The notes below the pieces were generated by a model. It did no database searches. It was not told the DNA's origin and worked only from the letters and a program-made list of their open reading frames with translations. Below, piece by piece: positions 1 to 63,908 of a DNA stretch of 64,000 nt. The DNA is from a virus (Duplodnaviria; Caudoviricetes). Each line of letters starts with the position of its first letter. The first letter of the stretch is position 1. The DNA is taken from positions 1-64,000 of the IMG/VR virus record IMGVR_UViG_3300014819_000001; one strand, given 5' to 3'. The position numbers were made by a program, and so were the translations under genes.

Positions 1-1480
1 GGCCACCAGCCCATTTTTTCCATTCACTAAGTATTATCCTCCATACACCAGGATAACTTCCGCTAGCGGCATCTTCAATCATTAGTTCAAGATATTTACG
101 ACCATCAGCATGATAAAATAAAGGCCCGCAGAAGAAATTACATTCCCAATCTTTTTTACCATATTGTCCAAACACATCGGCTTTGACATTCGCACTGGCT
201 AGATCAGTGGTTGCTGATACTCCTTCATCCTCCGCCCAAACTTTTAATTTTACATCAGGGTAAAGACTGTTGAAGGCTTGTTTTACAACTCGAGCCATAT
301 ATCTTGAGGCCTTGGGAGACCAAACATCCATAAGTTTGCTTTCCCATTCTGGACCTGACTCTTGATTAGTGGCCTGTGGGTTCGGACCATCGGCAAAGTT
401 TTCAGTTAATTTAGGTTCTTGGGTTCGTAATTTATAGGCAAGTTTACGGAAAATTTGGTTTTCAATTGCACGTACTCTGTCTATACTGACACCAAACTCA
501 GCAGCTATTTCATCAAGAGTTAGATCATCAAAATATCTAAGTTTTATTAGAAGTTTTTCTCTATCGGAAAAATTGTCTATATGCTGTAGTAGTTTTTTTA
601 TATCAATTTGATCAGTATTCAATTCATAAGATCCTGAATCACGATTCGTGTATCTTCTAGCATTATCAACTGGATCAGGTTCTAGAGTTGGCATTCTTTT
701 TCCTCTATAAGTAGGACCATCATACCTATATTTGGAAATCTGTTGATTAGGATGAGCTTCAGTTAGTTTGGTCAAGTCTAACATTTGACGCAGACCAGGC
801 TTGATAGTGGTGGCTCTCAACTTTTTAGTATCTATTTCTTGATCCTGATATCCTTGGATCTTACTGATATTATTAACCACCCACTGCCATGCTTCTTCAT
901 CTGATTTAGCATGAAGTTTTATACTAGGCAAGTTAGGATCTTCTATGTGATAAACATAAAGTATAGGCTTGAACGCACTGTGTTGTGGTTTATTCACATC
1001 TTTATATTGTTTAGGAGCAGGACCTTTGGCTATGACAAAATTAAAATCAAGAGCATCAAGATAATCTATATAACGCTTCTGCATCTCATCGTAGGGAACC
1101 ACATGCCATCCAAACTTGGCTGCTACACGCTTACTTATTGTATCATACATACGAGCACGACTGGGTTCTTTGGCTGTGAATATAATAGTTTCTACATTAT
1201 CTTCCATGTCTCTAACATAGTCTGTTATAGCATTGATCACTGTGGCAAATATTACACTGACATTGCCTCTACCAGTTAGATTAAAATCATCATTTAGCGA
1301 GAAGAAAACCTCAGCAACACCATCACCTACTTCAGTAAATTTTATGCGTAAAACATCGCTTGGATGTCCAGGACGAGCAGGTAGCACAGCTTTGGCTTGT
1401 TGTTCTTCACCATAGCCATCCCACTCTAATTCTAATGGTTCAGTATTGAATAACTCTGTGATAAACTCTCGCGATCTCAT
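1..1480 (-). CDS. Large multidomain (polyvalent-type) virion-internal protein containing a sigma-70 region-4-like HTH; runs off the window edge
   Basis: Not in the ORF track. Hand translation from the ATG at 1480 (MRSREFITELF...) stays open to position 2. Contains ...FSDREKLLIKLRYFDDLTLDEIAAEFGVSIDRVRAIENQIFRKL (about 430-600) and the linkers LTKLTE and PKLTENFADG. Confidence 0.8.
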   Translation of the reverse strand, partial: MRSREFITELFNTEPLELEWDGYGEEQQAKAVLPARPGHPSDVLRIKFTEVGDGVAEVFFSLNDDFNLTGRGNVSVIFATVINAITDYVRDMEDNVETIIFTAKEPSRARMYDTISKRVAAKFGWHVVPYDEMQKRYIDYLDALDFNFVIAKGPAPKQYKDVNKPQHSAFKPILYVYHIEDPNLPSIKLHAKSDEEAWQWVVNNISKIQGYQDQEIDTKKLRATTIKPGLRQMLDLTKLTEAHPNQQISKYRYDGPTYRGKRMPTLEPDPVDNARRYTNRDSGSYELNTDQIDIKKLLQHIDNFSDREKLLIKLRYFDDLTLDEIAAEFGVSIDRVRAIENQIFRKLAYKLRTQEPKLTENFADGPNPQATNQESGPEWESKLMDVWSPKASRYMARVVKQAFNSLYPDVKLKVWAEDEGVSATTDLASANVKADVFGQYGKKDWECNFFCGPLFYHADGRKYLELMIEDAASGSYPGVWRIILSEWKKWAGG

Positions 1481-49260: not shown

Positions 49261-50721
49261 TTATGTAAAAACTCTAATATTATGAGTTTGTTGAAAATAT
49301 TCTGCATCTTTAATATCATGCACTAGAGGTTGTCCTTTAATATTCAAGCTGGTGTTAAGCAACATAGGGCATCCTGTTTTTAAAAACCAATATTCTAAAA
49401 GTTGTCTAATTCTTGAACCATCTTTAGGTACTGATTGTACACGACTTGTTCCATCCTTGTGTACTATAGCAGGAAATTGCTCTGGATGTCTACATCTACT
49501 GGTGTATTGCATATATCTATGATGTCGAGGGGAACCCAATATTTCAAAATGTTCTGTAACGTATTCCTCAAGTATCATAGGAGCGAACGGTCTAAATTCT
49601 TGTCTACGTTTTATTTGATTAACACGGTCCTTAATATCAGGACCTCTTGGATCAGCAAGTAAGCTACGATTTCCGAAAGCTCTCGGACCAAATTCTTCTC
49701 TACCTTGAGCTACCCCACATATTTTATGTTCAATTAGATAATCGACTATTTGATTAACATCTGTTGTAGGTTCTATATTATGTCCTAGAAATGCATCTTT
49801 CCATCCTATGTTTTTTCTTGTATGTGCTAAAATTGCGCCCAAACTACTACCTGCATCACCAGGATTAGGCATAATCCAAATATCATTAAAATATTCAAAT
49901 GCTATAGAGTTAGCACTACAATTAAGAGCACAACCTCCCATTAATACTAGATTTTTACTAGGTACCAAAGACCTAGCCTTATTCAATGTAAAATCAAATA
50001 CTTTTTCATAAACACATTGAGTAGAGGCAGCAATATCAAATAAATCTTGTTTTGATTTCAGATCAGTCTTCCAATCTTTACAGCCACGATGTAGATTTTT
50101 TTTAAATTTTATATTTGAATAGGATGCATGAGTAAAGAAATCATCAAAAATATCAAAATAAAATCTATTAGGGTCACCAAAAGCAGCCATACCCATTAAT
50201 ATATATTCTTCTTCGTTAGGTTTAAGACCAATACGATCTGTCATAGCACTGTACCAAAGACCTATACTATTAGGATATTTTAAACTAAATTTTTTAATTA
50301 GTTTAGATCCTTCTGCCTGCCAAATACTCAAAGTTTCAAATTCACCTATAGCATCTATTACAAGTACACAGGCTCGATCAAACCCACTAGTAAAATATCC
50401 AGCAGCAGCATGGCTTAGGTGATGATTAACATTAATAATTTTTGATTTAGTATGATCTTTAAAATATTTTTTTAAAGAATTATTAATGATACCTTGTCCA
50501 GCTAAAAATTGTCTTAAACTTTTATTCCAAGGATTTTCGTGTTGAATGATTAGATTGGGAGGTCCATATTCTAATGCTGCTTTTATCAAATTAGAATCTA
50601 TATCACTATCGTTCTTAATTTTACTATAACGTTCACTATGAGCAGCAAATAATATCTGATTATCAGATACTATTGACAGACTACTGTCGTGGTTATTAGC
50701 ATTGACACCCCAATAAATCAT
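49261..50721 (-). CDS. Carbamoyltransferase (NodU/CmcH family)
   Basis: HDSS, HHLSHAA, DAIGE, GGCALNC, EFGPRAFGNRSLLADPR, RPFAP, LNTSLN. Confidence 0.93.
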   Translation of the reverse strand: MIYWGVNANNHDSSLSIVSDNQILFAAHSERYSKIKNDSDIDSNLIKAALEYGPPNLIIQHENPWNKSLRQFLAGQGIINNSLKKYFKDHTKSKIINVNHHLSHAAAGYFTSGFDRACVLVIDAIGEFETLSIWQAEGSKLIKKFSLKYPNSIGLWYSAMTDRIGLKPNEEEYILMGMAAFGDPNRFYFDIFDDFFTHASYSNIKFKKNLHRGCKDWKTDLKSKQDLFDIAASTQCVYEKVFDFTLNKARSLVPSKNLVLMGGCALNCSANSIAFEYFNDIWIMPNPGDAGSSLGAILAHTRKNIGWKDAFLGHNIEPTTDVNQIVDYLIEHKICGVAQGREEFGPRAFGNRSLLADPRGPDIKDRVNQIKRRQEFRPFAPMILEEYVTEHFEILGSPRHHRYMQYTSRCRHPEQFPAIVHKDGTSRVQSVPKDGSRIRQLLEYWFLKTGCPMLLNTSLNIKGQPLVHDIKDAEYFQQTHNIRVFT

Positions 50722-50843
50722 TTGTATATAAACGGATCTTGTTTTCTTAATTCCTCAAGTCTCTTTTTTATTCTTTGTTTTTCTTTTAGATAATAATATG
50801 GATAAGTGACATAATATATCAAAATTCTAAAGATTTTAACCAT
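50718..50843 (-). CDS. 41-aa peptide coupled to the carbamoyltransferase
   Basis: Hand translation MVKIFRILIYYVTYPYYYLKEKQRIKKRLEELRKQDPFIYK; ATGA overlap. Confidence 0.6.
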   Translation of the reverse strand: MVKIFRILIYYVTYPYYYLKEKQRIKKRLEELRKQDPFIYK

Positions 50844-51790
50844 TCTCTGCTCCTAAGTTTAATTTTTAATTCACTTTCTAATATTGCATTTTTAATAATC
50901 AAAAGAGTTTTTAGTTTGCCATAATATTTAACTGCATCGTTAATATCTTTTATATCATTATCCCAATCTGGCATACTTACCTTATAATTATTGTCTAATG
51001 CACTTTCTATAATTTTTAAACCTGCTTGATCTCTATCAGGAACAACAACAACTTTTTTACCTAATTGATTAATTAACATACTTTGTTGTTTATTGATTTC
51101 GTTACTCATTACAGCAACTCCATCTATACTAATAGCATCAAACTGCCCTTCACAAACAATAATAAATTGTCTATGATAATTTTGACGATCTAAATTGAAC
51201 ACATAACCTGGTTGTTGCTCTGCTAGATATTTTGCCTTACCTTCATCAATTCTTCTACAGGTATATCCTACAATTTGATTTCTAAAGTAATAGGGAATAA
51301 TTAATCTATTGTCAAAACCTTCTTCTGAACTCCAATAAAAATCATAGTCCTCTAAGGTCAAAGCTCTACTGTATATATATTCTATCACTGATATTAATTG
51401 GTCGCTTGGGTCATCAAGTAAATCAATGATTCGTTTGCTACCTCTGGGTAATGTCTTAGGTACAAACTTTGGAACATGTAATTCTTGTTCAACTATTTCT
51501 GTATCTTTAAGACGCATTGCTTCAATATATATTTTACTGATTATATCTGTTGGTACTGATAATAATTGTAGCAACTGTCTCATTTTTACACTAATACTAC
51601 GCCCTGGTTGCCAACTTGCCTTAAATCCACAGTTAAAACAGTGGTAACTTAAACTTTCCCCATCTATAATGAAGCCGCCTCTATTACGACGATCACTACA
51701 ACAAATAGCATTAAAGCTGATCCATCCACTTGGAGTGGTCTTTCGACTGTAAGGTAAATGACTTAATATAGTATCAGCAATAAGGTTCAT
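50819..51790 (-). CDS. DNA primase (Zn finger plus TOPRIM)
   Basis: CC...YHCFNCG, CEGQFDA, PDRD.AG, KDINDA. Confidence 0.9.
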   Translation of the reverse strand: MNLIADTILSHLPYSRKTTPSGWISFNAICCSDRRNRGGFIIDGESLSYHCFNCGFKASWQPGRSISVKMRQLLQLLSVPTDIISKIYIEAMRLKDTEIVEQELHVPKFVPKTLPRGSKRIIDLLDDPSDQLISVIEYIYSRALTLEDYDFYWSSEEGFDNRLIIPYYFRNQIVGYTCRRIDEGKAKYLAEQQPGYVFNLDRQNYHRQFIIVCEGQFDAISIDGVAVMSNEINKQQSMLINQLGKKVVVVPDRDQAGLKIIESALDNNYKVSMPDWDNDIKDINDAVKYYGKLKTLLIIKNAILESELKIKLRSREWLKSLEF

Positions 51791-51798
51791 TCCTTATT

Positions 51799-52629
51799 TT
51801 ACACTAGAAGACTAACTGAATCAAGTGATCCGGCTGTTTTAATATATCTAACTCTTAAATAATTTAAATCATCAATAGGCAATGGATCTGTTGTCCAAAT
51901 CCCATTATATCCATCCCAAGTAAAGTTTAAAAGTATTGCAGGGTTTCTAAATGATTCATTACCAATAACTTCAGTTTTTGTACCTTCAACCTTTACAGTT
52001 CCGTAGAAATTAGTCATTTTAATTTTTAATTTAACTTCTGTTATTTTTTTGGCTCTATAATCATTTAAGCTAATGCCTTCGCTATTGTAGTAAGTTTTTC
52101 GGTCTTCCCATCTTCCAGCAGTGTAGTTAGTCTCTTGAGTAAACCTATCATATACTTTAGTGCTAGTGGTAATATAATTAAGTCCATTTAATAATTGCAT
52201 AGTTCCAACAGCACCGTATTGACTATCAGTATAAGTTAGCACTTCAGGACCCATCATTTGATCTTTTAGTACAGCAAATTTCAAAAATTGTGGATCCAAG
52301 TCGTCTAAGTCAGATGTAGGTATAGTAATTCGTGCAAGGCCTACTTGTGTACTGTCTTCCATATTTTCTGCGGTATAAGTACCAATGAGGTTTCGACTTT
52401 GATCCATTAAAACTAGTTTTAATAGATCATTACCAATCTCAATACGTTTCTGATCATGATTTTTTACTTCTATTTCTATGACATTATCAATGCCTTTATA
52501 TATTTTTACGTTACGCTGGTACACTATTCGCCACTCCGTATTAGCTGAATTATTATCCAAATTGGTAAGTACAGTTATACGATTTGGATATAAATAAACT
52601 TGAATTTTATGCATTTGGACTCCTAACAT
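51799..52629 (-). CDS. Hypothetical beta-rich protein, possibly structural
   Basis: IYKGIDNVIEIEVKN; long intact ORF. Confidence 0.55.
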   Translation of the reverse strand: MLGVQMHKIQVYLYPNRITVLTNLDNNSANTEWRIVYQRNVKIYKGIDNVIEIEVKNHDQKRIEIGNDLLKLVLMDQSRNLIGTYTAENMEDSTQVGLARITIPTSDLDDLDPQFLKFAVLKDQMMGPEVLTYTDSQYGAVGTMQLLNGLNYITTSTKVYDRFTQETNYTAGRWEDRKTYYNSEGISLNDYRAKKITEVKLKIKMTNFYGTVKVEGTKTEVIGNESFRNPAILLNFTWDGYNGIWTTDPLPIDDLNYLRVRYIKTAGSLDSVSLLV

Positions 52630-52636
52630 TATTTAT

Positions 52637-53011
52637 ATGGCTAAAAAGCTAAGAGATACAACAAAAGAGCAATTACCCTTTATCAGCGTGTTAAACTATG
52701 GTGAGCAGGAATATGTTGGGATCATAATTAATCAAGATCAATTTGTTACAACTTTCTACGATATTGATGCTATACGAACACCAGAAGAAAAAAATCAATT
52801 CATTCTGATGGGCGAAACTTGGTGGTGGGAAAGTAATCGTCAAATACCCATCAATATATTTTTGAAAGCTGAGATAGATATATTCAAATATTGTATTAAA
52901 ACTTTCAATAGTAAAGGTGTTCGTATAGTATTAGGTCCCACAGTAAACTTACTTAATATGAGTTTAAAAAGAGCTAAACGTCGTAGTGTTGAATTAGTTA
53001 GAAAGATCTAA
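52637..53011 (+). CDS. Hypothetical protein
   Basis: EYVGIIIN...GETWWWESNR.IPINIFL. Confidence 0.7.
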   Translation: MAKKLRDTTKEQLPFISVLNYGEQEYVGIIINQDQFVTTFYDIDAIRTPEEKNQFILMGETWWWESNRQIPINIFLKAEIDIFKYCIKTFNSKGVRIVLGPTVNLLNMSLKRAKRRSVELVRKI

Positions 53012-53586
53012 CTATAATCATAACTCAAGCTTTCACAAATTAAATTCATCTGTACTACTACAGCCATAGCATAGGCTACAGCATGTGGCTTCTTAAAATA
53101 ATACTCGTCATTCTCTGGTTTCGTCCAAACTTCCATCATGATCTCGGGCCATGATTTTCCAATCAAGTGCCTCTTGGATGGTCGGATCATAGCGAGGACG
53201 GCAGCTAATTGTTCCACGGAAGTAGGTTGGGTCTTCTTCAGAATAGTCCCATGCCCTTTCAAATGAAATAGTAGATCCGTAAACTCGTCTTGTAGTAATA
53301 GTTCCCATAGTGGTTCTGTCTCCATTAATTGTGTTAAATGAGCTTCATTTTGTACATCTTTGTAGATGTTAACATTGAGAAAATCTATTTTAAAATAGCC
53401 ACGTTGTTCGGCTTGTTTGTATTCTATGCCTGCTATTTTTGTCAAAGGGTCATAAGGTATACTTTGAACATATATACCTGTATTATGTACAGCTACCCCA
53501 TCAGGTCCTTCACGTCTTGCCTTGATATGAGGTATCAAATTTAGTGCTTGATCTCTATTGGCAAAATCGATGTCGATGTCAGGCAT
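53008..53586 (-). CDS. Miniature DnaE (Pol III alpha, C-family)-like polymerase core
   Basis: MPDIDIDF, HNTG, GYFKIDFL, LAMIRP, YYFKKPHAVAYA within 192 aa. Confidence 0.8.
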   Translation of the reverse strand: MPDIDIDFANRDQALNLIPHIKARREGPDGVAVHNTGIYVQSIPYDPLTKIAGIEYKQAEQRGYFKIDFLNVNIYKDVQNEAHLTQLMETEPLWELLLQDEFTDLLFHLKGHGTILKKTQPTSVEQLAAVLAMIRPSKRHLIGKSWPEIMMEVWTKPENDEYYFKKPHAVAYAMAVVVQMNLICESLSYDYS

Positions 53587-53758
53587 CAGTGCTTGACCTC
53601 ACTGTTAAACATTAGTAATGGTAGATTATCTGCCAAAAATTCAGTATATTCCTTAGCATCCTCTACAGTTTCAAAACCAGTGAACTGTACGTAAACTGCC
53701 TTATCTTCTTCGACTAGCCTAACTTCTATGTCTAATGGTATTTCTTTTACTTCAGTAC

Positions 53759-54439
53759 TCATAAGTTATGTTCCTTTACAACATGTTTGACTAGATCAAG
53801 ATCATCTGAGTTTGAACGAAACTTTTTAACCCAAAATTCTGGATCTATAGTATTACTGAGTTCTGCTAACTGTTCATCGCTAAATTGTGTTAATAATTTT
53901 CTACCACCAGTACTATTTAACAATAGCCAAGGACTCACTTTTCCATCTTTAATATCAAAGGTAGCTCTAGTCGGGCTAGCGTATAGAAAATAATGATTCC
54001 ATATGCTACTATGATCATCTGCCCAATCCATCATAGTAGCTATGCTTCTTTGCAGTGCAGTTTCTACACTTTCGTTTTTTATTAGTTCAAGAACATAGGA
54101 TTCATATAATTTTTCATTACACCAGTGATCAAGTTTTACTCCACTGACCACTACATAATCAATAAAATATTCTGGATACAAAGGATTTACATTGTGTAGA
54201 AAGCTACCAAATTTAACAAAAGCGTTATAATATTGGCTTCTAGCAAAATCATCATAACTTTTTTGTCCTTCAAATTTCTGTGATAATTTGTAAAATCTAC
54301 AATAGCTTAGAAAGCCCATTTGTACATGTTTTTCATTTTTAGCAAAATGGCGTCTTTTTTGTTCACACATATGCACCATCAAAGTTTTTTCCTTAGTAAA
54401 TTTACTTTGACAATGATTACAAATAAATGCTTGATTCAT
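53759..54439 (-). CDS. Zinc-finger-containing hypothetical protein
   Basis: FICNHCQSKF...LMVHMCE. Confidence 0.7.
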   Translation of the reverse strand: MNQAFICNHCQSKFTKEKTLMVHMCEQKRRHFAKNEKHVQMGFLSYCRFYKLSQKFEGQKSYDDFARSQYYNAFVKFGSFLHNVNPLYPEYFIDYVVVSGVKLDHWCNEKLYESYVLELIKNESVETALQRSIATMMDWADDHSSIWNHYFLYASPTRATFDIKDGKVSPWLLLNSTGGRKLLTQFSDEQLAELSNTIDPEFWVKKFRSNSDDLDLVKHVVKEHNL

Positions 54440-54903
54440 TAAAAATATTTTTGAATTTGTGAATCGTCCCAACCTAAGTCTTTAGCTAAATTTTTAAGTT
54501 CTTTCACACCATTGATTTCAGCTAGGATTTCTAGGTCACACAGTTTTCTATCTGGATATATATCCTGTAAAAATTTTAATTTTTTAGTTTCGCCCTTTTT
54601 CTTTTTAAAACCAATCCATTCATGAAAATATTCTTGTTTATTTTCATATCCACAACAACACAATAACTGCCAAAGTAATTTAGGATGTTTATTAAACAAT
54701 GACCAGTGTTTATTATAAAATTCGTTTGTTGATAATACATAGTGTTCTTGAACTTCTCTTTTACTAGTTTTTACACTACTAACATATCTGTTCAATAAAA
54801 AGAAACTTACGCTCTTTTTTTGTTCATCAGTGAATAAATCCCAAAGGTCTTTACCGCCTTGATCTACTGCACTGAGTATGTCTTTTAATTCAAGTTTTGC
54901 CAT
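54439..54903 (-). CDS. Clamp-loader small subunit (T4 gp62-like)
   Basis: FLLNRYVS...N...H..L.W pattern, size, and replication-module context. Confidence 0.5.
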   Translation of the reverse strand: MAKLELKDILSAVDQGGKDLWDLFTDEQKKSVSFFLLNRYVSSVKTSKREVQEHYVLSTNEFYNKHWSLFNKHPKLLWQLLCCCGYENKQEYFHEWIGFKKKKGETKKLKFLQDIYPDRKLCDLEILAEINGVKELKNLAKDLGWDDSQIQKYF

Positions 54904-55116
54904 CTTCTTTACCTAATCTATAGATCATTATAACACGTTCAACAGCCTTTTGTAAAGCAGGGTTGGAATCTTTTTTATACCATATTTCATTCCATTCTAA
55001 TTGATTTCTCCTATCTATAGCATATTGATCCATACTGACAAGAGCTCTTTCGGTGCTATTAGGTTTCCTTACATATACTGTATGACCACCGTCTGGACTT
55101 TCAAAAATCTCCCCCA

Positions 55117-55623
55117 TCAAAGAATCCTACCAATATCAATCAGCTCACTTTGCCTACTTACTTCTTTAACAAAAAATGCACATTCTGGCTTTTCTTCGTA
55201 ATTCAATGGAGTTACTAGTAAATGGTTATTACGCATTTTAGGAAAATACCATTTGACATCATTATAAAAATTTACAATCTCAATTGGCTTATATTCAATT
55301 TTGAAACTGCTCAAAGGGTTAAAAATTACAGCATCAAATCCTCGATCATTTAGGCTAGTTAGAGGTAATATTTCAGCGTCCACACTGCTAGTGCCATCTC
55401 CTACAACAATGCTCCAATCTATAGGCATACTGATTTCTTGATCACCTATTTTTAACACTATAGCTGGGCTGTTAAAACTTTCTAAAAATATCAATGGTAC
55501 AAAGAAGAAGTCTGGATTTTTTGGATCACTATTGTCTAATACAGCGAATCTTGTGTTTTCATCTACTTCGTCTGGTAAATTGTTTAATGAGAATAATTTG
55601 TTTTCTAATGTTAGTATTTGCAT
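55117..55623 (-). CDS. Hypothetical protein
   Basis: Intact ORF in the helicase operon. Confidence 0.65.
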   Translation of the reverse strand: MQILTLENKLFSLNNLPDEVDENTRFAVLDNSDPKNPDFFFVPLIFLESFNSPAIVLKIGDQEISMPIDWSIVVGDGTSSVDAEILPLTSLNDRGFDAVIFNPLSSFKIEYKPIEIVNFYNDVKWYFPKMRNNHLLVTPLNYEEKPECAFFVKEVSRQSELIDIGRIL

Positions 55624-55625
55624 GA

Positions 55626-57098
55626 TTATTGCCAGTCCATTTTTTGAATACTGAATGGATATTGGGCTTCCTTATAATATTTTTTACGTTCTGTAAGATG
55701 TCGTTTGCTGAACTTACAGGTGCTGGTTACATCCCAGATTTCAACATGGTCTTTGTCCTCCGCTCGACGGATACCCCTGCCAATGCTTTGTATAACACGT
55801 ACAAAGGACTTGCCAGACTCAATAAGAACCAAATTAAAAATGCGAGGAATATTGATGCCAACTGCCGCCACACCGTAGGTTGCGACGATGACTTTATTTT
55901 GACTCGTTGCCACTTCGTCATATTCTTCTTTCCTATCTTTTGTCTTTACATTGCCTGATATGAATACGCTGCCTTCTAATTCATTTACTATAAATTTGCC
56001 TGTGTCAATTCTATTTACTAATACTAATGTATTGCCTTTCTCTGCTACATTCTTAATAAATTTGCTAATATAAATCATCCTAGTTTCATCTGTAACAAGA
56101 TACTTTAGTTCATCTGCATAATTTTTAAATTCAGGTAAGTCAACAAGTTGTACAATGTTCACATGACAATTACTAAGGACTCCTCGCTCTTGTAATTCAC
56201 TAGCTTTAATGCCACCAACTAGTGGACCGATACTGGCGAAAATTTGTTCATGTTCATAAGGTTCTTTAGGCACAGTTCCAGTTAGGCCCCAACGTATACA
56301 AGCATTATTTAGGTTACGTGTTAACAAATTTTTCAATACCTCTGCTTTGGCCATGTGTACTTCGTCAACAATTACAGCAGTAACCCCATCTAAAAATTCA
56401 GCCAATGTAAGTTGATCTGTTTCTCCATTTTTACTTTTTTTATCCAATATGTTTAAACTTTGCCAAGTGCATATTGTATGCGTACAATTTAATTCTTTAC
56501 GATCACCATAATACACACCAACATCCAATCCTACATTACGAAAATCTTCTTCAGTTTGTTCAACTAGACTTTTGTTTGGTACTATGGTGATAGTCCTTCC
56601 ATATGGCTCACATAGTTGGCTTAAAGTAGCAGTGGTAATAGTTTTACCAGCACCAGTAGCAATCTCTTGTAGGCTTTGATGATATTGAAGGAAATTGTTT
56701 ATAGCATCTACTTGATAGTCACGTAGCAATATAGGTTGACCTTCTTGTTGATGACCTTTAGGCCATACCTTACCCTGATCAGCCCAATATGTTTCAGTTA
56801 CCGGAGTAAAACTGATTTGTTTACTGGATCTGTGATCTTCAATATCAGTTACTTCGATATCCATAGAATCCAATACCCCAAGTATTTTTTCTATGTGTGT
56901 TAAGTACCCTGATCCTCCAATACCAAATAGGCTAGTTGTACCATCCCAACGTCCTAACTTGTAAGCAGGTTGGAAACGTGCATAGGGCAATACATATTTG
57001 AAGGTGTTGGCTAACTTACGACGTGCTTCTAATGGCAACCCCTCAAATTTAATGTTTACTTCATCTTTTATTATTAATTTACAGGATTTCATGTACAT
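55626..57098 (-). CDS. uvsW: SF2 helicase, UvsW-like
   Basis: LRDYQ, ATGAGKT, VDEVH, GLTGT, QSIGRGIR. Confidence 0.85.
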   Translation of the reverse strand: MYMKSCKLIIKDEVNIKFEGLPLEARRKLANTFKYVLPYARFQPAYKLGRWDGTTSLFGIGGSGYLTHIEKILGVLDSMDIEVTDIEDHRSSKQISFTPVTETYWADQGKVWPKGHQQEGQPILLRDYQVDAINNFLQYHQSLQEIATGAGKTITTATLSQLCEPYGRTITIVPNKSLVEQTEEDFRNVGLDVGVYYGDRKELNCTHTICTWQSLNILDKKSKNGETDQLTLAEFLDGVTAVIVDEVHMAKAEVLKNLLTRNLNNACIRWGLTGTVPKEPYEHEQIFASIGPLVGGIKASELQERGVLSNCHVNIVQLVDLPEFKNYADELKYLVTDETRMIYISKFIKNVAEKGNTLVLVNRIDTGKFIVNELEGSVFISGNVKTKDRKEEYDEVATSQNKVIVATYGVAAVGINIPRIFNLVLIESGKSFVRVIQSIGRGIRRAEDKDHVEIWDVTSTCKFSKRHLTERKKYYKEAQYPFSIQKMDWQ

Positions 57099-58263
57099 TT
57101 GATATTAATGGCTTTACAGGTAAATGATAAATTATCAGGTCACAGTCATTACAATAAACATCACATTTATTGTTTCTAAGGCTATTGGTAAAACTGATTA
57201 CAGCATCTGGATACCAACTACTGTGTAGCATGAATTTTGGTAGTTTTCCATTACCAATACCTACTATGTCAGTATCGTTATCTAATTTTTTATTCAGTGA
57301 ATATTGTGATATAATCTTGTTAAATGCTAGTCCTTCTTGTTTGTTATCAAATCTAAAATAAATTCCAGTATTATATTCTTGAATATTTGACTCTAAAAAT
57401 TTTATCAATTTTTCAATTGAATGTATACTATTGATAGGTGAAAAATCGTCAAAAATTATCAAAATTCGATTTCTACTAAGATTAGACAGTGCGGTTAAAA
57501 GAGTATTAAAATTGACTATGTTACTATTGATAAAAACTTTATTTTGTACTCTGTTGGCTATCTTATATTCTAAACTATTTTTTGTATTTTCGTCAAACTC
57601 ACCATTGAAATTGTACTGGTACCGTATTTTTTGATCTAAAACAATTAACTGGTTAGTAGTATCTATTTTATGATTATTTGGTTCTAATTTACTCTTATAA
57701 AGGTGGTCAAATTCAAATTTTTCTTGGACTTGTTTTAAATCAAGTTTAGAAATTTTTTCATATAATTCCAAAAAATCATCGGAAAACTTAAATTTTAGTG
57801 GGGACAACTGATCATATAAAGTTACTATATTTTTTTCTGACAATGAGTATATGTAGCCTTTATTATTTAAATCATGCTTTTCATATTTCAATTGAGAGTT
57901 AATAATAGACAATATTTTTTTGATTTCTTTATCAAAACTAAATTCAACTAGAATTTGTGCTTCCTCATTTTTTGAGTATTTTAGTGAGATTTGACGAATT
58001 TTTTCATTAACTCTAAATTCTTTTTTCCACATTGGCATTGCCAATAATTCTAGCACAGAGTCTTTAAAATTTCCTAAGTGTTCTTGATTTTCTTTTAAGA
58101 TTTTTAATACTAGATTAGATTGGGATTCCGTAATATACAAATCCTTAGTCATCATAGATGATATATTTTTCAGTATTTTTCTATCTTTAAGAGGTATGGA
58201 TGAATTGATATTATCGAAACCTATTTGTTTTAAAGAATAAATTAAATCATCAACTGTATTCAT
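57079..58263 (-). CDS. Hypothetical protein
   Basis: 394-aa AT-rich ORF overlapping the helicase start. Confidence 0.7.
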   Translation of the reverse strand: MNTVDDLIYSLKQIGFDNINSSIPLKDRKILKNISSMMTKDLYITESQSNLVLKILKENQEHLGNFKDSVLELLAMPMWKKEFRVNEKIRQISLKYSKNEEAQILVEFSFDKEIKKILSIINSQLKYEKHDLNNKGYIYSLSEKNIVTLYDQLSPLKFKFSDDFLELYEKISKLDLKQVQEKFEFDHLYKSKLEPNNHKIDTTNQLIVLDQKIRYQYNFNGEFDENTKNSLEYKIANRVQNKVFINSNIVNFNTLLTALSNLSRNRILIIFDDFSPINSIHSIEKLIKFLESNIQEYNTGIYFRFDNKQEGLAFNKIISQYSLNKKLDNDTDIVGIGNGKLPKFMLHSSWYPDAVISFTNSLRNNKCDVYCNDCDLIIYHLPVKPLISNVHEIL

Positions 58264-58289: not shown

Positions 58290-59138
58290 CTATGTCAAGT
58301 CTACTTTACTCAATAACCTTCTAAGAGGTGTTCCTTCATTAATTTCTTCAATGGTCCATTCAGTATGTAGTATGGCATTAAACCAACTGCTTCTATCTAA
58401 AATTCTTGGGGAGTCTATATTAGACAGCATATCACTTTGTTCATAGGCTAGGCTAGATTCATCACAGATTAAGGGACAGCCATTGATAATACTTTGTATA
58501 CCTACACCACTATTAAAATTTATGATTGCCTTATAGTTGAAACTTAAATCAAACTTGTCATAAGTGCCTAATAATTTCTTAGGTGTATCAAGAATGACAT
58601 TATGGCCAAAATCTTGACCAAGATAGTTACGTGGGTGAGGCCTAGCGATGATTTTTTGATCTGTATATTTTCTAATCTCAAGAATTTTTTGTCTCATCCA
58701 ATCCTTACATGATCCAGAATATGTCCATTGTAAACTTTGATCATGCTGTCCGGCTATCAATATAGGTTTGTTATTATTAGGAGTGACATCGTTTAATTTA
58801 ATACCTAATTTTTTGTCTCTATCTGGTATAAAGTTTTCATTATGAGCATAAATTCCATCTCGAGTAATATTGTTTACACTGACCTTCCAAGTTTGTCCTC
58901 TGATCAAACTTCCGACTTCAAGAATAAAAACAGGCTTACCTAAATTTCTATAGTGATTGTAGATTTCTTGATTTTTCTGCATTCTACCACGCCACAGTAC
59001 ACTCCAAATTAAGGCACAGTCACAATCTAAAGAATTTGCTACAGGCTCAATACCTAATTTTTTACAGGCTTCTAAAAATCCCTGCCACACTGGTTCACTC
59101 TGTTGTGCTGTTTGATTTTCAAAGTAGGAAATTTTCAT
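58290..59138 (-). CDS. GT-B protein resembling capsule KpsC/KpsS-type Kdo transferases
   Basis: LIAGQH.QS, RPHPR, NSGVGI.SII.G.P. Confidence 0.6.
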   Translation of the reverse strand: MKISYFENQTAQQSEPVWQGFLEACKKLGIEPVANSLDCDCALIWSVLWRGRMQKNQEIYNHYRNLGKPVFILEVGSLIRGQTWKVSVNNITRDGIYAHNENFIPDRDKKLGIKLNDVTPNNNKPILIAGQHDQSLQWTYSGSCKDWMRQKILEIRKYTDQKIIARPHPRNYLGQDFGHNVILDTPKKLLGTYDKFDLSFNYKAIINFNSGVGIQSIINGCPLICDESSLAYEQSDMLSNIDSPRILDRSSWFNAILHTEWTIEEINEGTPLRRLLSKVDLT

Positions 59139-59155
59139 ATGTTAAATATTTAATC

Positions 59156-59959
59156 ATGAATACGCCGAATTTCATAGGAGAATTCCCCCAAAATTCCATA
59201 GTTTTTTATATGGCCGCTGACGAGGTCTATTTTAATCTTCATGCCAAAACTCTTATAGCCAGTATCAAAGAAAATTTTAATCATCCTATACATATTCATA
59301 TATATAACCCAAGTGATGCTACAAAAATCTATTGCGAAAGTAATAATGTAAGTTATAGTTTTGAATTCTTTGATGAAAAATTAGTTGAACGAGCCCACCA
59401 AATATATAAAAGGCCTTATTATGATTTTGAACTAATAAGACGTAAGGCAAAAATGCAAAGTGGCAAAAGAGATGACAAAGAACTTTGGAAATATCTGGTA
59501 AAAACTTATTACGCCTGTACAAGATTTGTTAGACTGTGGCAACTTTTACAAAAACCGACCTATGTCATACTTTTAGACGTTGACAGTTTGGTAAGGATGC
59601 CTTTTGTTCTTCCTACTAATGAATATGACATTCATGTATATATAAAAAAACATAAAAAGCATGTTCCATGGCCTCAACATTTAGCTAGTACTATTTTTTA
59701 TACTGGAACTGACGCTAGTTTTAAGCTAATTCGTGATCATGCCAATTTAATTATTGAAGAATATCAAAAAGATTTATTCTATTGGTTTTTAGATCAGGAA
59801 ACTTTAGATGTTGCCCTAGCCAAATATAAAAGAGCACCATTAGATCAAGCATTTGTTGACTTCGATATGGGCGAAACTAGTTTTATATGGTGTGCCAAGG
59901 GAAACTTAAAAGATAATCAAACTTGGCTCAGTGAAATTAAAAAATATCAAAGTTTATAA
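59156..59959 (+). CDS. Nucleotide-diphospho-sugar transferase-like protein
   Basis: YYACTRF, LDVDS, WFLDQ. Confidence 0.65.
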   Translation: MNTPNFIGEFPQNSIVFYMAADEVYFNLHAKTLIASIKENFNHPIHIHIYNPSDATKIYCESNNVSYSFEFFDEKLVERAHQIYKRPYYDFELIRRKAKMQSGKRDDKELWKYLVKTYYACTRFVRLWQLLQKPTYVILLDVDSLVRMPFVLPTNEYDIHVYIKKHKKHVPWPQHLASTIFYTGTDASFKLIRDHANLIIEEYQKDLFYWFLDQETLDVALAKYKRAPLDQAFVDFDMGETSFIWCAKGNLKDNQTWLSEIKKYQSL

Positions 59960-60858
59960 TAGCTTTTAAACTTGTTCCAATATACTCCTTGGAGAATTTC
60001 GTCACCAGTATGATGTATATGTGCAATTTTATGAAGCCATTCATTTCTGTCAGGCATTGGCGGGTCAGAAAGTTGCTCAAGATTAGTAAATCCCACATCC
60101 TTGGCCCAACTATTAGTAGGCTCATCAAGATAAACTGGGATACCTTCTATTACACTGACACAATTTGGTGTACTATTGAATCCTACACAACACCAAGCAT
60201 CAGCCAAATCATCTTTTATGTCACCTCCAGTACGAACATTCACAGTATGACCGAATCTTTTTCTTATTCTTTCAACATTTGCCTTATTATGGCCACTATC
60301 ACCTGGATGAAGCCTCACTGTGATTGGTCTATCAGTTATTTCTCTCACTCTTCCCACCATATTGCACACCCATTTGATGCCATTATGTCCTAACATGTTC
60401 CAACCTTCAGTTCTTTGACCTAAAATTACAATATGATTACCATTTTGACGCCATGGTTTAATTTCTAAGTCATGCATAGCTAAAAGTTTATCTAATTTTG
60501 TTGGGTCTTTTGGTAAACTTAAAAAATATTCACCATCTGTTGGGTAAACTCCATTAACACTGTATCTATAACAATGATTATCTTTTTTTCCGTAGTTAAA
60601 AATATTACTATCTATGTAAATTATAGGAATATCTCTAGATTTTAAGTTTCTAATAATTTTACTTCTAAAATTTTCACCTAAAGTATAGCCTAAAATAAAT
60701 CCTGCGTCAATATCTAAAATTTTTTGTTCATGTTTTTTAAAATTAACGATTTCGTCCCCAGCAGCTACCACTCCCAAGCCAAAATCTATCAATCTTGACG
60801 TTTTTAAGGAAGCAGTACGCCAATCACTTATACTGGTATAAAAAATTCCTACTTTCAC
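59947..60858 (-). CDS. GT-B protein resembling capsule KpsC/KpsS-type Kdo transferases
   Basis: ILGQR, VRLHPGD, NSTP...SVIEGIP. Confidence 0.6.
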   Translation of the reverse strand: MKVGIFYTSISDWRTASLKTSRLIDFGLGVVAAGDEIVNFKKHEQKILDIDAGFILGYTLGENFRSKIIRNLKSRDIPIIYIDSNIFNYGKKDNHCYRYSVNGVYPTDGEYFLSLPKDPTKLDKLLAMHDLEIKPWRQNGNHIVILGQRTEGWNMLGHNGIKWVCNMVGRVREITDRPITVRLHPGDSGHNKANVERIRKRFGHTVNVRTGGDIKDDLADAWCCVGFNSTPNCVSVIEGIPVYLDEPTNSWAKDVGFTNLEQLSDPPMPDRNEWLHKIAHIHHTGDEILQGVYWNKFKSYYKL

Positions 60859-61682
60859 AATTTTTTTACAAGATCATCTATTTCTTTCAAGCTTTTCAGT
60901 AGGTTAGACATATCTTCCATCTTAATCATGTTAGGTCCATCACTGGGAGCGTTGTCTGGATCATCATGGCATTCGATGAAAACGCCGGCTAAACAGCCTG
61001 TTGCTACTGCTGCTCGGGCGAGATATGGGACCATCCCGCGATCCCCGCCAGAAGAGGAACCCAATCCTCCAGGCTGTTGGACTGAATGAGTACAATCGAA
61101 CACGACAGGGTAACCAGTACCGGCCATAATAGGCAAACTACGCATATCGACCACCAAATTGTTATATCCATGAGTATATCCTCTTTCACATAACATAATG
61201 TTATGATTTCCAGTACTGGCTATCTTCTCTGCTACATTTTTCATATCATGAGGGGCTAAGAATTGGCCTTTCTTCACGTTAATAACCAATCCAGTCCCAC
61301 CTGCTGCTATCAATAAGTCAGTTTGGCGACAAAGAAAGGCAGGAATCTGAATAACATCAATTTCATATGCTAGTGCCAGTTTGGCATGTTCCTTTTCATG
61401 TATATCTGTTAGTACAGGCACACTTAATTTAGTTTTTATTTCATTAAGTATGCTCAATCCTTTATGTAGACCTACTCCACGACGTCCATTGATGCTTGAT
61501 CTATTGGCCTTATCAAAACTACTCTTAAAAATTAAGTCCATACCTAAGTCTCTACAAATATCTAGTAATTCTGCGGCTATTTGATAGGCATGCTCTCTAC
61601 TTTCTATTTGGCAAGGTCCTGCAATCACCTTTATGGGACTTGAATTGTCTATAGTAAAGTTATTAAACGTAATTTGTTTCAT
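60855..61682 (-). CDS. kdsA: KDO8P synthase
   Basis: IAGPCQIES, SFDKANRSS, QIPAFLCRQTDL, KKGQFL, ERG, DCTHSVQ.PG, SDGPN. Confidence 0.96.
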   Translation of the reverse strand: MKQITFNNFTIDNSSPIKVIAGPCQIESREHAYQIAAELLDICRDLGMDLIFKSSFDKANRSSINGRRGVGLHKGLSILNEIKTKLSVPVLTDIHEKEHAKLALAYEIDVIQIPAFLCRQTDLLIAAGGTGLVINVKKGQFLAPHDMKNVAEKIASTGNHNIMLCERGYTHGYNNLVVDMRSLPIMAGTGYPVVFDCTHSVQQPGGLGSSSGGDRGMVPYLARAAVATGCLAGVFIECHDDPDNAPSDGPNMIKMEDMSNLLKSLKEIDDLVKKL

Positions 61683-62436
61683 TTTTTCTCTTTTCTAATT
61701 CTTCTATAGGAATTTGCTCACGGATTAACCTATTTTTTTCATTTATGATAAAATTAACCATATTTTCGTAATTTCCAGAGTATAAAGCCCTTAATATTTT
61801 AGGAAATTTGCTACCATAATGCACAGTTCCCAATTCATAAGTATGTAGTCCTCCACCATGGTCAATATTATTAATTTTTATACTAGGATAATGTTCTTGT
61901 AGGTACTCTATGGCATTACCATCATAAAATCGTCTAAATTCGAATATTTTACCACTTTCCCAAACCTCTTCATAGTCAAAAATCAATCTTTTCACCTGCT
62001 GATGATTCATATTTACTATAATATGTCCAGCATCCAACTTATTTTTCTGACTCTGGCCTATGGCCCATATATAATTTGAATTTTTAAGCTCTCTGAAGGT
62101 ATCATTAAGAATATTCATATTAATACCGGTAATTTCTACATCTGTATCTAATAAGATAACGAAATCATAGTTGGTAAGACTTTTAAGTGCCCATATCTGG
62201 CTTTGCATCTTACGCCAAAAATTTAAAGGCTTAGTTCGTTGATATTTCTTAGTGAAAGTATTATTTTTGTTATAAATTTTGTTCCAATCTACAATTTCTA
62301 TATTAGACAAGGATATATCTGCTGCATCGTGAACTATAAATTTATTACCTGGTAAAGTTTGCCAAGAAGGTAAGCAATATTTTGCTATGTAGTGATAATA
62401 TACAGAGTCTGCTAGACCTGTCCATGCTATATTCAA
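61663..62436 (-). CDS. Glycosyltransferase-like protein (DxD)
   Basis: FWRKM..Q, LLDTDV, DAGH. Confidence 0.6.
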   Translation of the reverse strand: MNIAWTGLADSVYYHYIAKYCLPSWQTLPGNKFIVHDAADISLSNIEIVDWNKIYNKNNTFTKKYQRTKPLNFWRKMQSQIWALKSLTNYDFVILLDTDVEITGINMNILNDTFRELKNSNYIWAIGQSQKNKLDAGHIIVNMNHQQVKRLIFDYEEVWESGKIFEFRRFYDGNAIEYLQEHYPSIKINNIDHGGGLHTYELGTVHYGSKFPKILRALYSGNYENMVNFIINEKNRLIREQIPIEELEKRKNETNYV

Positions 62437-62469
62437 AATATACCCCTTAATAGAGTATTTATTGATGCA

Positions 62470-63147
62470 TTATTTTTGTAGACAATAGGTAGTTAAACTA
62501 TATTCATTATGCCAGTCACTGGCCATTTCTGTATTTTTAAATTCATTAAAGCATGGTGCACCTAAAGTATAATGCAAAAGTTTTGCGTCAGGATTTGGGC
62601 CTAATTCATCTGGTAACCAGTTCCAATCTTTAGGTAATTCACCTATCATATCATCTTTTAACCATTGAAATCTGTGTAGATGACTTCCAGGGGCCTGCAT
62701 TACATATTCAGGTGTTAATATTCTATTTGCTACTGTAAAACAGTTCCAAATAATCACACTACTCCAATTTTTTCTAGGATAATCTTCATTCTTGCTGCCT
62801 AAGTATTTTATAGGCATCTTAGTTTTGTAGTTGTGCTTAACTACTTGAACATCGTAGCCTATTTCTCTTTGATTCCATAATTCTACTATATCTCCCTTGA
62901 TGATCATGTCTCCATCTATATAGATAGCATAACCATCATAACCTGTAAGATAAGGAACTAAGAATCTACTGTAGATAAAGGCATTACTACCGTCTTTATG
63001 CGTTTCTTCGTATTCTTTAAATAAATTTAGAGCTAGAGGAATGATACTAACAGGCTTAGAACTTTGTCTAATTATGCTGTTGGCACATGTATGAAAGACA
63101 ACGGCTTCTCTAGGATCATAGCCTATAAATATAGGAATTGTGTTCAT
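62470..63147 (-). CDS. GT8-like glycosyltransferase
   Basis: FIGYDPRE, FIYSRFLVP, IDGDM, RKNWSS, WNWL, HYTLG.P. Confidence 0.8.
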   Translation of the reverse strand: MNTIPIFIGYDPREAVVFHTCANSIIRQSSKPVSIIPLALNLFKEYEETHKDGSNAFIYSRFLVPYLTGYDGYAIYIDGDMIIKGDIVELWNQREIGYDVQVVKHNYKTKMPIKYLGSKNEDYPRKNWSSVIIWNCFTVANRILTPEYVMQAPGSHLHRFQWLKDDMIGELPKDWNWLPDELGPNPDAKLLHYTLGAPCFNEFKNTEMASDWHNEYSLTTYCLQK

Positions 63148-63908
63148 TTACGTTCAATATCTTCTTCGACACAATTGTGTCCGTATTGAATTTCAACAAT
63201 TTTAATAGGAACATCACCTTCATTGACCAGTTGATGCCATTCTTCATAATTAATGAACAAACTATCAAATTCTTTATACGGGCCCATCCGTACTAATTCA
63301 CCGTTTGAATTGAGCGTATTCACATATCCCTCACCTTCCATAAAAAACCAAAATTCTTTACGATCAAAATGTCTTTGTAAACTTAATTTACTATGTGGAT
63401 TACAGACTAATTCTTTTACTTTAGTTTCTGGACCATTTTCATAAATAACCCTATAGTATCCCCAAGTTTTATCTGTACGCGGTGCTGCCCAATTTTCCAG
63501 TAGCCAACTACTAGAATTTATTTTATCTTGTCCACCCACACAAAAAGCAAATTTTACATTAGGATCTTGAATACGCATTTCAGGAATGTTTTCTTTTGTA
63601 CGATCCCCACCATTAGCAAAGATTATTTCATATCCAGGAAACATTTGTTGTGTTTGTCTTATAGCATCACAACTACTATCGTCATCATCATTATGTTGGA
63701 ATGCATAATCTACCATACGTAGATTTCTAATTATATCCATACGTTCATTTGCTGGCATAAAAGGGCGACCTTTTTTCCTTGTTAACCAAGCATCGCTGTT
63801 TATTCCAACGATAAGTTTATCACCTAATGTTTTTGCGTGTTCAAAATAACGTATATGACCAGAATGGATGGGGTCGAACCCACCAGTTACTAATACTATT
63901 TTTGACAT
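63144..63908 (-). CDS. Cytidylyltransferase (TagD/RfaE-like) fused to a cupin domain
   Basis: TGGFDPIHSGH, NSD.WL.RKKG, NGGDR; WG.Y...LSLQRH..R.E.W...HQL.N. Confidence 0.88.
   Translation of the reverse strand: MSKIVLVTGGFDPIHSGHIRYFEHAKTLGDKLIVGINSDAWLTRKKGRPFMPANERMDIIRNLRMVDYAFQHNDDDDSSCDAIRQTQQMFPGYEIIFANGGDRTKENIPEMRIQDPNVKFAFCVGGQDKINSSSWLLENWAAPRTDKTWGYYRVIYENGPETKVKELVCNPHSKLSLQRHFDRKEFWFFMEGEGYVNTLNSNGELVRMGPYKEFDSLFINYEEWHQLVNEGDVPIKIVEIQYGHNCVEEDIERK

Follow-up and report, generated by a model that had tools for sequence, protein, structure and literature searches.

A split, minimal form of the DNA polymerase III alpha subunit has been described for the group 2.2 jumbo phages by Iyer, Anantharaman, Krishnan, Burroughs and Aravind (2021; Viruses 13:63, PMC7824862), who suggest that it models the ancestral enzyme; according to the same paper, the group 3.2 jumbo phages use a host-like, full-length DnaE with its PHP domain as replicase. 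By that account the split arrangement has been known since 2021, from sequence. Here, an open reading frame (ORF) that very probably encodes the C-terminal unit (C unit) of a split minimal polymerase III alpha of group 2.2 T4-like jumbo phages was analysed in a 64,000-nucleotide stretch of DNA (the window), which corresponds to bases 1-64000 of the 109,473-bp IMG/VR contig IMGVR_UViG_3300014819_000001, rated as 31% complete by CheckV. The coordinates of this ORF and of its neighbours are collected in Table 1.

When compared with the C-terminal unit as presented in the available 2021 text, the C unit of the window was found to be alike in its size of around 190 amino acids, in its start at the DxD motif, in its invariant residues, in its helicase-to-primase neighbourhood and in the kind of phage. 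No difference of substance from the family as described there was seen, the window copy belonging to an uncultured freshwater phage whose N-terminal unit (N unit) would lie beyond the fragment. Because the available text of the paper fits, and because Atu_ph07 is named in it as a group 2.2 phage, the families phrog_11778 and phrog_11127 were taken to be the one that it describes. In contrast to the DnaE of group 3.2 phages and of phrog_405, which is a full-length replicase, the enzyme of the window type is a minimal, split form in phages that have a family B polymerase as well. The gene also carries suitable labels in the databases, as RaK2 ORF124 and Atu_ph07 gp074 are called 'DNA polymerase' in RefSeq, the copy of Sinorhizobium phage Phosso is labelled 'DnaE-like DNA polymerase III alpha', and several GenBank records name the C-unit gene 'DNA polymerase III alpha' or 'DnaE-like'; the available part of one phage genome paper merely lists 'DNA polymerase III DnaE'. 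The window itself therefore contributes one more member to a known family.

The translation of the ORF shows, in DnaE order, the motifs M-P-D3-I-D5-I-D7-F, H34-N-T-G37 and G63-Y-F-K66-I-D68-F-L, followed by A132-M-I-R135-P136 and Y162-Y-F-K-K-P-H168-A-V-A-Y172, with D3 and D5 aligned with MPDIDIDF at 413-420 of Mycobacterium tuberculosis DnaE1. An earlier note, made from the letters of this DNA, had reported three catalytic aspartates, these motifs in this order and an intact gene with overlapping neighbours, all of which was found again: the start and stop codons are intact, and the overlaps amount to 1 nt at the start of the ORF and 4 nt at its stop. The absence of PHP, OB and clamp-binding fragments from the vicinity, also claimed there, was borne out by Pfam searches with nine neighbours within about 4 kb. 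The G-S triphosphate-binding motif is not on the C unit, as the ORF opens just one residue ahead of DxD. A full Pol-beta-type nucleotidyltransferase core, with G-S ahead of the DxD strand, is thus provided only by N and C units together or by their fused forms. A Pfam scan of the C unit returned no family at E≤0.01. Among the PHROG families, phrog_11778 ('DNA polymerase', 197 positions) was matched at E 6.2e-69 by residues 3-186 on profile positions 8-194, and the phage DnaE family phrog_405 (1190 positions) was matched weakly (E 4.6e-8) on positions 578-678.

The likeness to bacterial C-family polymerases was followed at the level of both sequence and predicted structure. A single-sequence phmmer search of PDB chains produced weak matches (E 0.3-0.6), which were collinear with M. 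tuberculosis DnaE1 and with the alpha subunit of Thermus aquaticus; on DnaE1, residues 1-14, 51-138 and 161-175 of the C unit corresponded to 413-426, 564-664 and 774-788, respectively. Compared to DnaE1, the C unit is without approximately 100 residues between DxD and KxD and without approximately 87 residues between R-P and K-S-H-A. The thumb of DnaE is reportedly located in the stretch between DxD and KxD. When a profile of 81 sequences was used for the PDB search, all nine distinct sequences matched were polymerase III alpha subunits, the best being that of Escherichia coli (E 3.1e-6), with the KxD motif aligned to 'GLVKFDFLGL' within 538-641 of E. coli alpha and the last motif of the C unit to 'YGFNKSHSAAYAL'.

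An AlphaFold2 model of the C unit, obtained from the 81-sequence alignment, had a predicted local distance difference test score (pLDDT) of 96.4 and a predicted template modelling score (pTM) of 0.89. In searches with this model, Foldseek ranks 1-16 were all occupied by C-family polymerases (best E 5.9e-4), and so were VIA-align ranks 1-14, at Z 6.1-9.5 and with 176-190 residues aligned, with the first unrelated row at Z 3.3. PolC (3F2B) was found at Z 9.5 (root-mean-square deviation 3.2, 186 residues aligned), the Taq enzyme (3E0D) and DnaE1 (5LEW) both at 9.4 and the E. coli enzyme (2HNH) at 9.2. The resemblance of the C unit to C-family polymerases is far beyond chance. Because its 192 residues map to 400..781 of E. 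coli alpha in VIA-align, the motifs are compressed about two-fold, and alignment to the solved polymerases points to a clustering of the catalytic aspartates. A comparison of the predicted structure with the polymerase III palm, as proposed in the earlier note, accordingly yielded nothing except C-family enzymes above Z 3.3, and the description of the ORF as streamlined holds for a C-family palm plus a remnant of the fingers whose motif spacing is about two-fold tighter than in E. coli alpha.

In common with DnaE and PolC, the C unit has the DxD and KxD palm strands, with three acidic active-site residues arranged as in the C-family, and the R-P and Y-x-F-x-K-S-H-A motifs of the fingers, in the same order. 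However, the solved DnaE and PolC enzymes (2HNH, 2HPI/3E0D, 5LEW and 3F2B) are single chains of more than 900 amino acids with PHP, thumb, full fingers, clamp-binding and OB parts, whereas in the C unit the break in the palm falls between ...FL and PDxD, the fingers are roughly halved and PHP is lacking.

In relatives, the other half of the palm is encoded by a separate gene. In RaK2 and Atu_ph07, a second ORF matches phrog_405 at positions 357-437, directly before the DxD position, and encodes an N unit of 172 and 177 amino acids, respectively, that ends in ...G-[LV]-G-R-G-S-...-E-F-L-[KE]; the palm of the phrog_405 DnaE is homologous to both the C unit and the N unit, the latter at E 6.7e-11. 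The layout of the N unit in the relatives consists of a variable head of around 80 amino acids, helices, a strand ending in W-G-V-G-R-G-S-S and a stop at ...EFLR. With these motifs, the N unit is the triphosphate-binding half of the palm, which stops where DnaE runs on into P-D-x-D-x-D-F. An N unit of 155-168 amino acids is also present in three of five large IMG/VR relatives, including the sole one rated as 100% complete (364,554 bp), and matches Pfam PF07733 above its cut-off (46.5 bits, E 4.7e-12, positions 12-94 of 260) as well as phrog_11127 (E 9.4e-43).

The N unit was found in 136 phage records, including phages with a full-length DnaE, for example those of Streptomyces, Enterococcus and Clostridium. 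Of 40 C-unit records listed, 33 recur among the 60 N-unit records listed, the other seven being coliphages, and the numbers of records with C and N units were 34 and 34 for phages of Escherichia, 11 and 11 for Pseudomonas, eight and eight for both Erwinia and Salmonella, four and four for Xanthomonas, and 11 and 10 for Klebsiella. The two genes lie far from each other, at distances of about 34 kb in RaK2, 44 kb in PA5oct, 182 kb in Atu_ph07, 224 kb in Phosso and 180 kb in the complete IMG/VR relative.

A small protein of the phrog_14844 family, of unknown function and with a shared ...N-A-R-G-D... motif, is encoded 1-64 nt 3' of the N-unit gene in five of five genomes. Immediately after it, the three IMG/VR relatives among them have genes for a GroES/gp31-like protein and a MazG-like pyrophosphohydrolase. 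The phrog_14844 protein could be a candidate partner of the mini-polymerase.

In three proteins of 375-376 amino acids (P0098, P0271 and P0272), a single frame encodes an N unit joined to a C unit by some 10 linker residues, and the PF07733 match crosses the junction in these fusions, as at residues 97-207 of P0098. The fusions are rare, with three among 16 matches of one search and one among the best 150 representatives. All three are metagenomic, from contigs of 2.4-5.9 kb. The fused forms show that N and C units make up one enzyme.

The predicted structure of P0098 (pLDDT 86.4, with low values at residues 1-80 and in the linker at 181-190) aligned with DnaE1 over 343 of its 375 residues at Z 21.2 and with Taq alpha at Z 20.0. 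C-family polymerases took ranks 1-16 (Z 12.1-21.2), with the solved bacterial DnaE and PolC enzymes at Z 15-21; the next folds, at Z 3.5, were terminal uridylyl- and nucleotidyltransferases. The alignment used for this model (A5) placed GRGS correctly in all 24 N units and DxD in all 11 C units but misplaced the last 30 or so residues of the N units, and the model was read accordingly; two hybrid alignments for the fused form (A3 and A4) were discarded, as they placed N units against the C half. The VIA-align alignments of P0098 start at residues 9-13 of the DnaE chains, in the N-terminal PHP region. Because they begin there, the variable head of the N unit could, from the model, be a vestige of a PHP domain without its metal ligands, in a segment that has a pLDDT of 50-75 in P0098 and whose alignment is known by its range ends only.

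When a complex was predicted between the C unit of the window and the N unit of one relative (G003), the interface score ipSAE was 0.91, 0.91 and 0.92 compared to 0.00 for the best of three controls, with at least 98% of the contacts shared among the runs and a partner pLDDT of at least 92. Of 80 solved complexes, 58 attained the mark set for this score, as did two of 110 mismatched pairs; since the two chains are halves of a solved fold and the N unit comes from another phage, the score measures likeness and plausibility, not binding. In the model, residues 2-9, which form the first C-unit strand, are paired with residues 133-134 of the N unit, in the strand that leads into GRGS.

Several results weigh against the assignment of the ORF to a split enzyme. 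No N unit was found in the 109,473-bp record, either with two protein queries or with a six-frame scan for G-x-G-[RK]-G-S, nor in two of the five large IMG/VR relatives, which are 79% and 34% complete. The N-unit profile matched no PDB chain at E≤0.01, and the phage that provided the N unit for the predicted complex has a C unit only 66% identical to that of the window. Neither a conserved proofreading partner nor a thumb, a clamp-binding part or an OB part is present, and because these are lacking, templated and useful DNA synthesis is not assured. Finally, a literature search returned no biochemical or genetic test, which the supplements of Iyer et al. (2021) or further papers may hold.

The missing N unit can be explained by the distances of 34-224 kb that separate both genes in relatives and by the 31% completeness of the record, and as a consequence the partner of the window's C unit was assumed from the relatives. 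The same absence could be taken to mean that the 192-residue protein works alone as a complete single-chain miniature polymerase or nucleotidyltransferase, as the earlier note had proposed for this intact, strongly conserved gene with its three aspartates. Such an enzyme would have to do without the G-R-G-S half of the palm, since the ORF starts at the DxD strand, and this half is present as a separate gene for 155-177 amino acids in the relatives. Genes for both units turn up in the same phages, the natural fusions join the two, and in the predicted complex the initial strand of the C unit is buried against its partner. The closest complete relative has about 180 kb between the two genes, and on all these grounds a single-chain enzyme is very improbable. 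A remaining part of DnaE encoded elsewhere as a split gene, which the earlier note had named as evidence against its own proposal, was in fact found in the relatives, the record of the window being a 31% fragment. The assignment to a split polymerase III alpha is therefore retained, and the C unit alone should be inactive.

The family to which the C unit belongs is large. A tblastn search detected it in 96 of 50,697 phage records, in every case at less than 60% identity, with Atu_ph07 as the closest cultured match (54%) and Phosso, the PA5oct group, RaK2/K64-1, 121Q-like coliphages and SCTP-2 among the other carriers; those among the records listed have jumbo genomes, with the exception of one 85.7-kb record. 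A HMMER search of 1.84 billion representatives gave 406 representative clusters at E≤1e-3, 261 at ≤1e-10 and 67 at ≤1e-30. Among the best 150 of the 406 clusters, 87 representatives were 180-220 amino acids long, 61 were shorter, many of which look like pieces from contig ends, and the remaining two were of 233 and 375 amino acids. The 233-residue protein (P0142) has a normal C-unit start over its first 110 or so residues followed by unrelated sequence, and probably results from a frameshift or from a chimeric gene call. The DxDxD motif begins within the first 18 residues in 83 of the 87 full-length representatives.

An alignment of 81 full-length representatives, from clusters at most 50% identical to one another, showed D3, D5, K66, D68 and P136 to be invariant and D7, H34, G37, R135, K138, K165 and H168 to be kept in at least 90%. 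Among IMG/VR relatives, taken as the best 80 of 537 confirmed loci (62-83% identical to the C unit), all 80 proteins had 188-194 amino acids and began with M-P-D-x-D. The ratio of nonsynonymous to synonymous substitution rates (dN/dS; Nei-Gojobori) had a median of 0.16 and a range of 0.035-0.35, as calculated from 240 of 3240 pairs with 0.05<dS<1.5, the remaining pairs being saturated or too close.

Given the size of the family, the conservation of its length and residues and the low dN/dS, the C unit is the product of a genuine gene rather than of a chance ORF or of one in decay, in agreement with the earlier note, which had denied that the gene was broken. An inactive remnant, either a decaying piece of DnaE or a purely structural or regulatory protein without chemistry, would fit with a C-unit activity that is predicted only and with the absence of a Pfam domain. 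Against a remnant stand the low dN/dS, the fixed length in 80 of 80 relatives, the invariance of metal-binding and fingers residues across the clusters aligned and the 406 representative clusters of the family, and we regard this explanation as barely credible.

The presence of other polymerase parts was followed in the same phages. A family B polymerase was detected in four of four relatives checked, which answers positively the question raised in the earlier note about a separate replicative polymerase; the open frames had 890-1003 amino acids, except in Atu_ph07, where the matches fell in two frames of 418 and 578 amino acids (L095, 212336-213688, minus strand) and the gene may be split or interrupted. 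In the 109-kb record, 31% complete, PF00136 (family B polymerase) gave no match, and neither did PF07733. PF02811 (PHP) was matched in none of five records, this one included, and PF17657 (fingers) gave in five of five only a sub-threshold match inside the C unit itself. An epsilon-like proofreading partner was rejected as a feature of the family, as PF00929 was matched only in RaK2 and Atu_ph07 (two of five) and not in the complete relative.

The C unit supplies both metal-binding strands and a reduced remnant of the fingers, and in the relatives the N unit contributes the half of the palm with the G-S loop. From these data, a mechanism can be proposed in which both would assemble by completion of the palm sheet into one active site of the Pol-beta fold, with triphosphate binding provided by the N unit and the metals and the contacts to the template or the incoming nucleotide by the C unit. 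The heterodimer could then be an accessory DNA polymerase of low processivity that works alongside the family B replicase, a role for which the chances appear about even. Since thumb, clamp contact and OB part are absent, such an enzyme should be distributive, and its tasks might be gap filling, primer extension or repair, by short-patch synthesis at primers, gaps or lesions; the short-patch role is suggested by the position of the C-unit gene between helicase and primase.

A bolder proposal, rather unlikely on present evidence, is that the pair, or the 375-residue fusion, is the smallest working C-family polymerase, thumb-less and clamp-less, acting in hand-off or gap filling at primers from the adjacent gp61-type primase, next to a family B replicase, in which case the phrog_14844 protein could be a third subunit. 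If this were true, polymerases of bacterial type and of archaeo-eukaryotic type would share one replisome.

The two units could also form an active nucleotidyltransferase of the Pol-beta fold that is not a templated DNA polymerase and that would make untemplated tails, modify primers or ends, or produce a nucleotide-derived compound for host takeover or counter-defence. The loss of about 100 residues between DxD and KxD relative to DnaE1, which leaves no thumb-sized insert, would be in accordance with such a function, as would the halved fingers, the lack of PHP in all five records, the full family B polymerase that already serves replication and the terminal uridylyl- and nucleotidyltransferases that come after the C-family among the nearest folds of the fused form. 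However, the R-P and K-x-H-A motifs of the fingers are kept in at least 90% of the homologues and align to the DnaE fingers, the gene is located within a conserved helicase-primase module, and the fused form reaches Z 12-21 with C-family enzymes compared to 3.5 with other nucleotidyltransferases. This alternative is therefore distinctly unlikely, and a split DNA polymerase III alpha is preferred.

Read as a split polymerase III alpha, the C-unit family reduces the replicative polymerase fold of bacteria to its minimal catalytic core. The family is large, and through it a single virus has a C-family enzyme together with a family B replicase. Either the natural fusion or the pair of halves could reveal what the C-family palm is able to do without thumb, PHP and clamp contacts.

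The C-unit gene is part of a replication module with the order UvsW-like helicase, five small ORFs, C unit, convergent ORF, virion-protein-like ORF and gp61-type primase. This helicase-to-primase order is kept across the window, RaK2 and Atu_ph07, with uvsW of RaK2 in the same relative place and a small opposite-strand gene at the position of the convergent ORF in both phages. After the primase, RaK2 has a gp41 helicase, and the window has a carbamoyltransferase gene in that place. Auxiliary genes of sugar or envelope type flank the module of the window on both sides, at 49261-50721 (minus strand) and 58290-63908. A megablast search with positions 50000-58000 of the window gave no match among phage records.

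Table 1. Positions of the C-unit gene, its motifs and surrounding genes in the window, and of phrog_14844 genes in other records
Feature	Position	Strand	Remarks
C unit, very probably of a split minimal DNA polymerase III alpha (predicted Mg2+- and template-binding)	53008..53586	-	192 aa, ATG start
DxD metal-binding pair, codons D3-I4-D5	53572..53580	-	extreme protein start; invariant in 81 homologues
KxD motif with third catalytic aspartate, codons K66-I67-D68	53383..53391	-	K66 and D68 invariant
Nested ORF, frame +2 in C-unit gene	53108..53308	-	66 codons, ATG start
58-aa ORF, upstream	53586..53762	-	no Pfam or PHROG match; stop overlaps C-unit start by one base
Convergent 124-aa ORF	52637..53011	+	phrog_11637 (function unknown); 4-nt overlap with C-unit stop
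gp61-like DNA primase (Toprim), downstream	50819..51790	-	Toprim_2 E 1.1e-5; phrog_47 E 1.7e-45
UvsW-like superfamily-2 helicase, upstream	55626..57098	-	ResIII E 6.2e-22; phrog_16 E 4.3e-71
NodU/CmcH-type carbamoyltransferase	49261-50721	-	Pfam E 2.6e-46
DAHP_synth_1 (KdsA-like) enzyme	60855-61682		Pfam E 1.7e-68
GT8 glycosyltransferase	62470-63147		weak match
Cytidylyltransferase and mannose-6-phosphate-isomerase/cupin fusion	63144-63908		
phrog_14844 gene, L091	1244-1468	-	
phrog_14844 gene, L092	1799-2026	+	
phrog_14844 gene, L093	1231-1470	-	
phrog_14844 gene, L003	1811-2170	+	
phrog_14844 gene, L004	1081-1491	-	

The C-unit gene also contains a nested ORF in frame +2, for which the evidence as a real second gene is mixed. 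In 72 of 81 homologues, a frame of 50 codons or more that starts with ATG occupies this position, and its stop-free run was longer than in 95% of synonymous-codon shuffles in 71 of the 81 genes compared to only two for frame +1, these counts being taken over related, and hence not independent, genes. Synonymous differences amounted to 0.552 inside the nested frame and 0.483 outside it, with the lower value inside in 727 of 3240 pairs, and the nested peptide is poorly conserved.

Contigs covering the locus at 95% identity or more were found in metatranscriptomes (two runs of one study), X11 covering 52517-53198 and 53281-54875, where the gap at 53199-53280 carries no meaning, and X13 covering patches. 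Because carry-over of DNA is possible and the contigs come without strand or level, they were not taken as transcription. They show 15-17 differences that are mostly missing from two compared DNA runs, and therefore a related strain is indicated. DNA near-identical to positions 52000-55000 of the window was found in metagenome runs labelled as freshwater or lake, from several studies and years, with 13 runs, seven of them possible sources of the record, containing at least half of the words sampled from this region.

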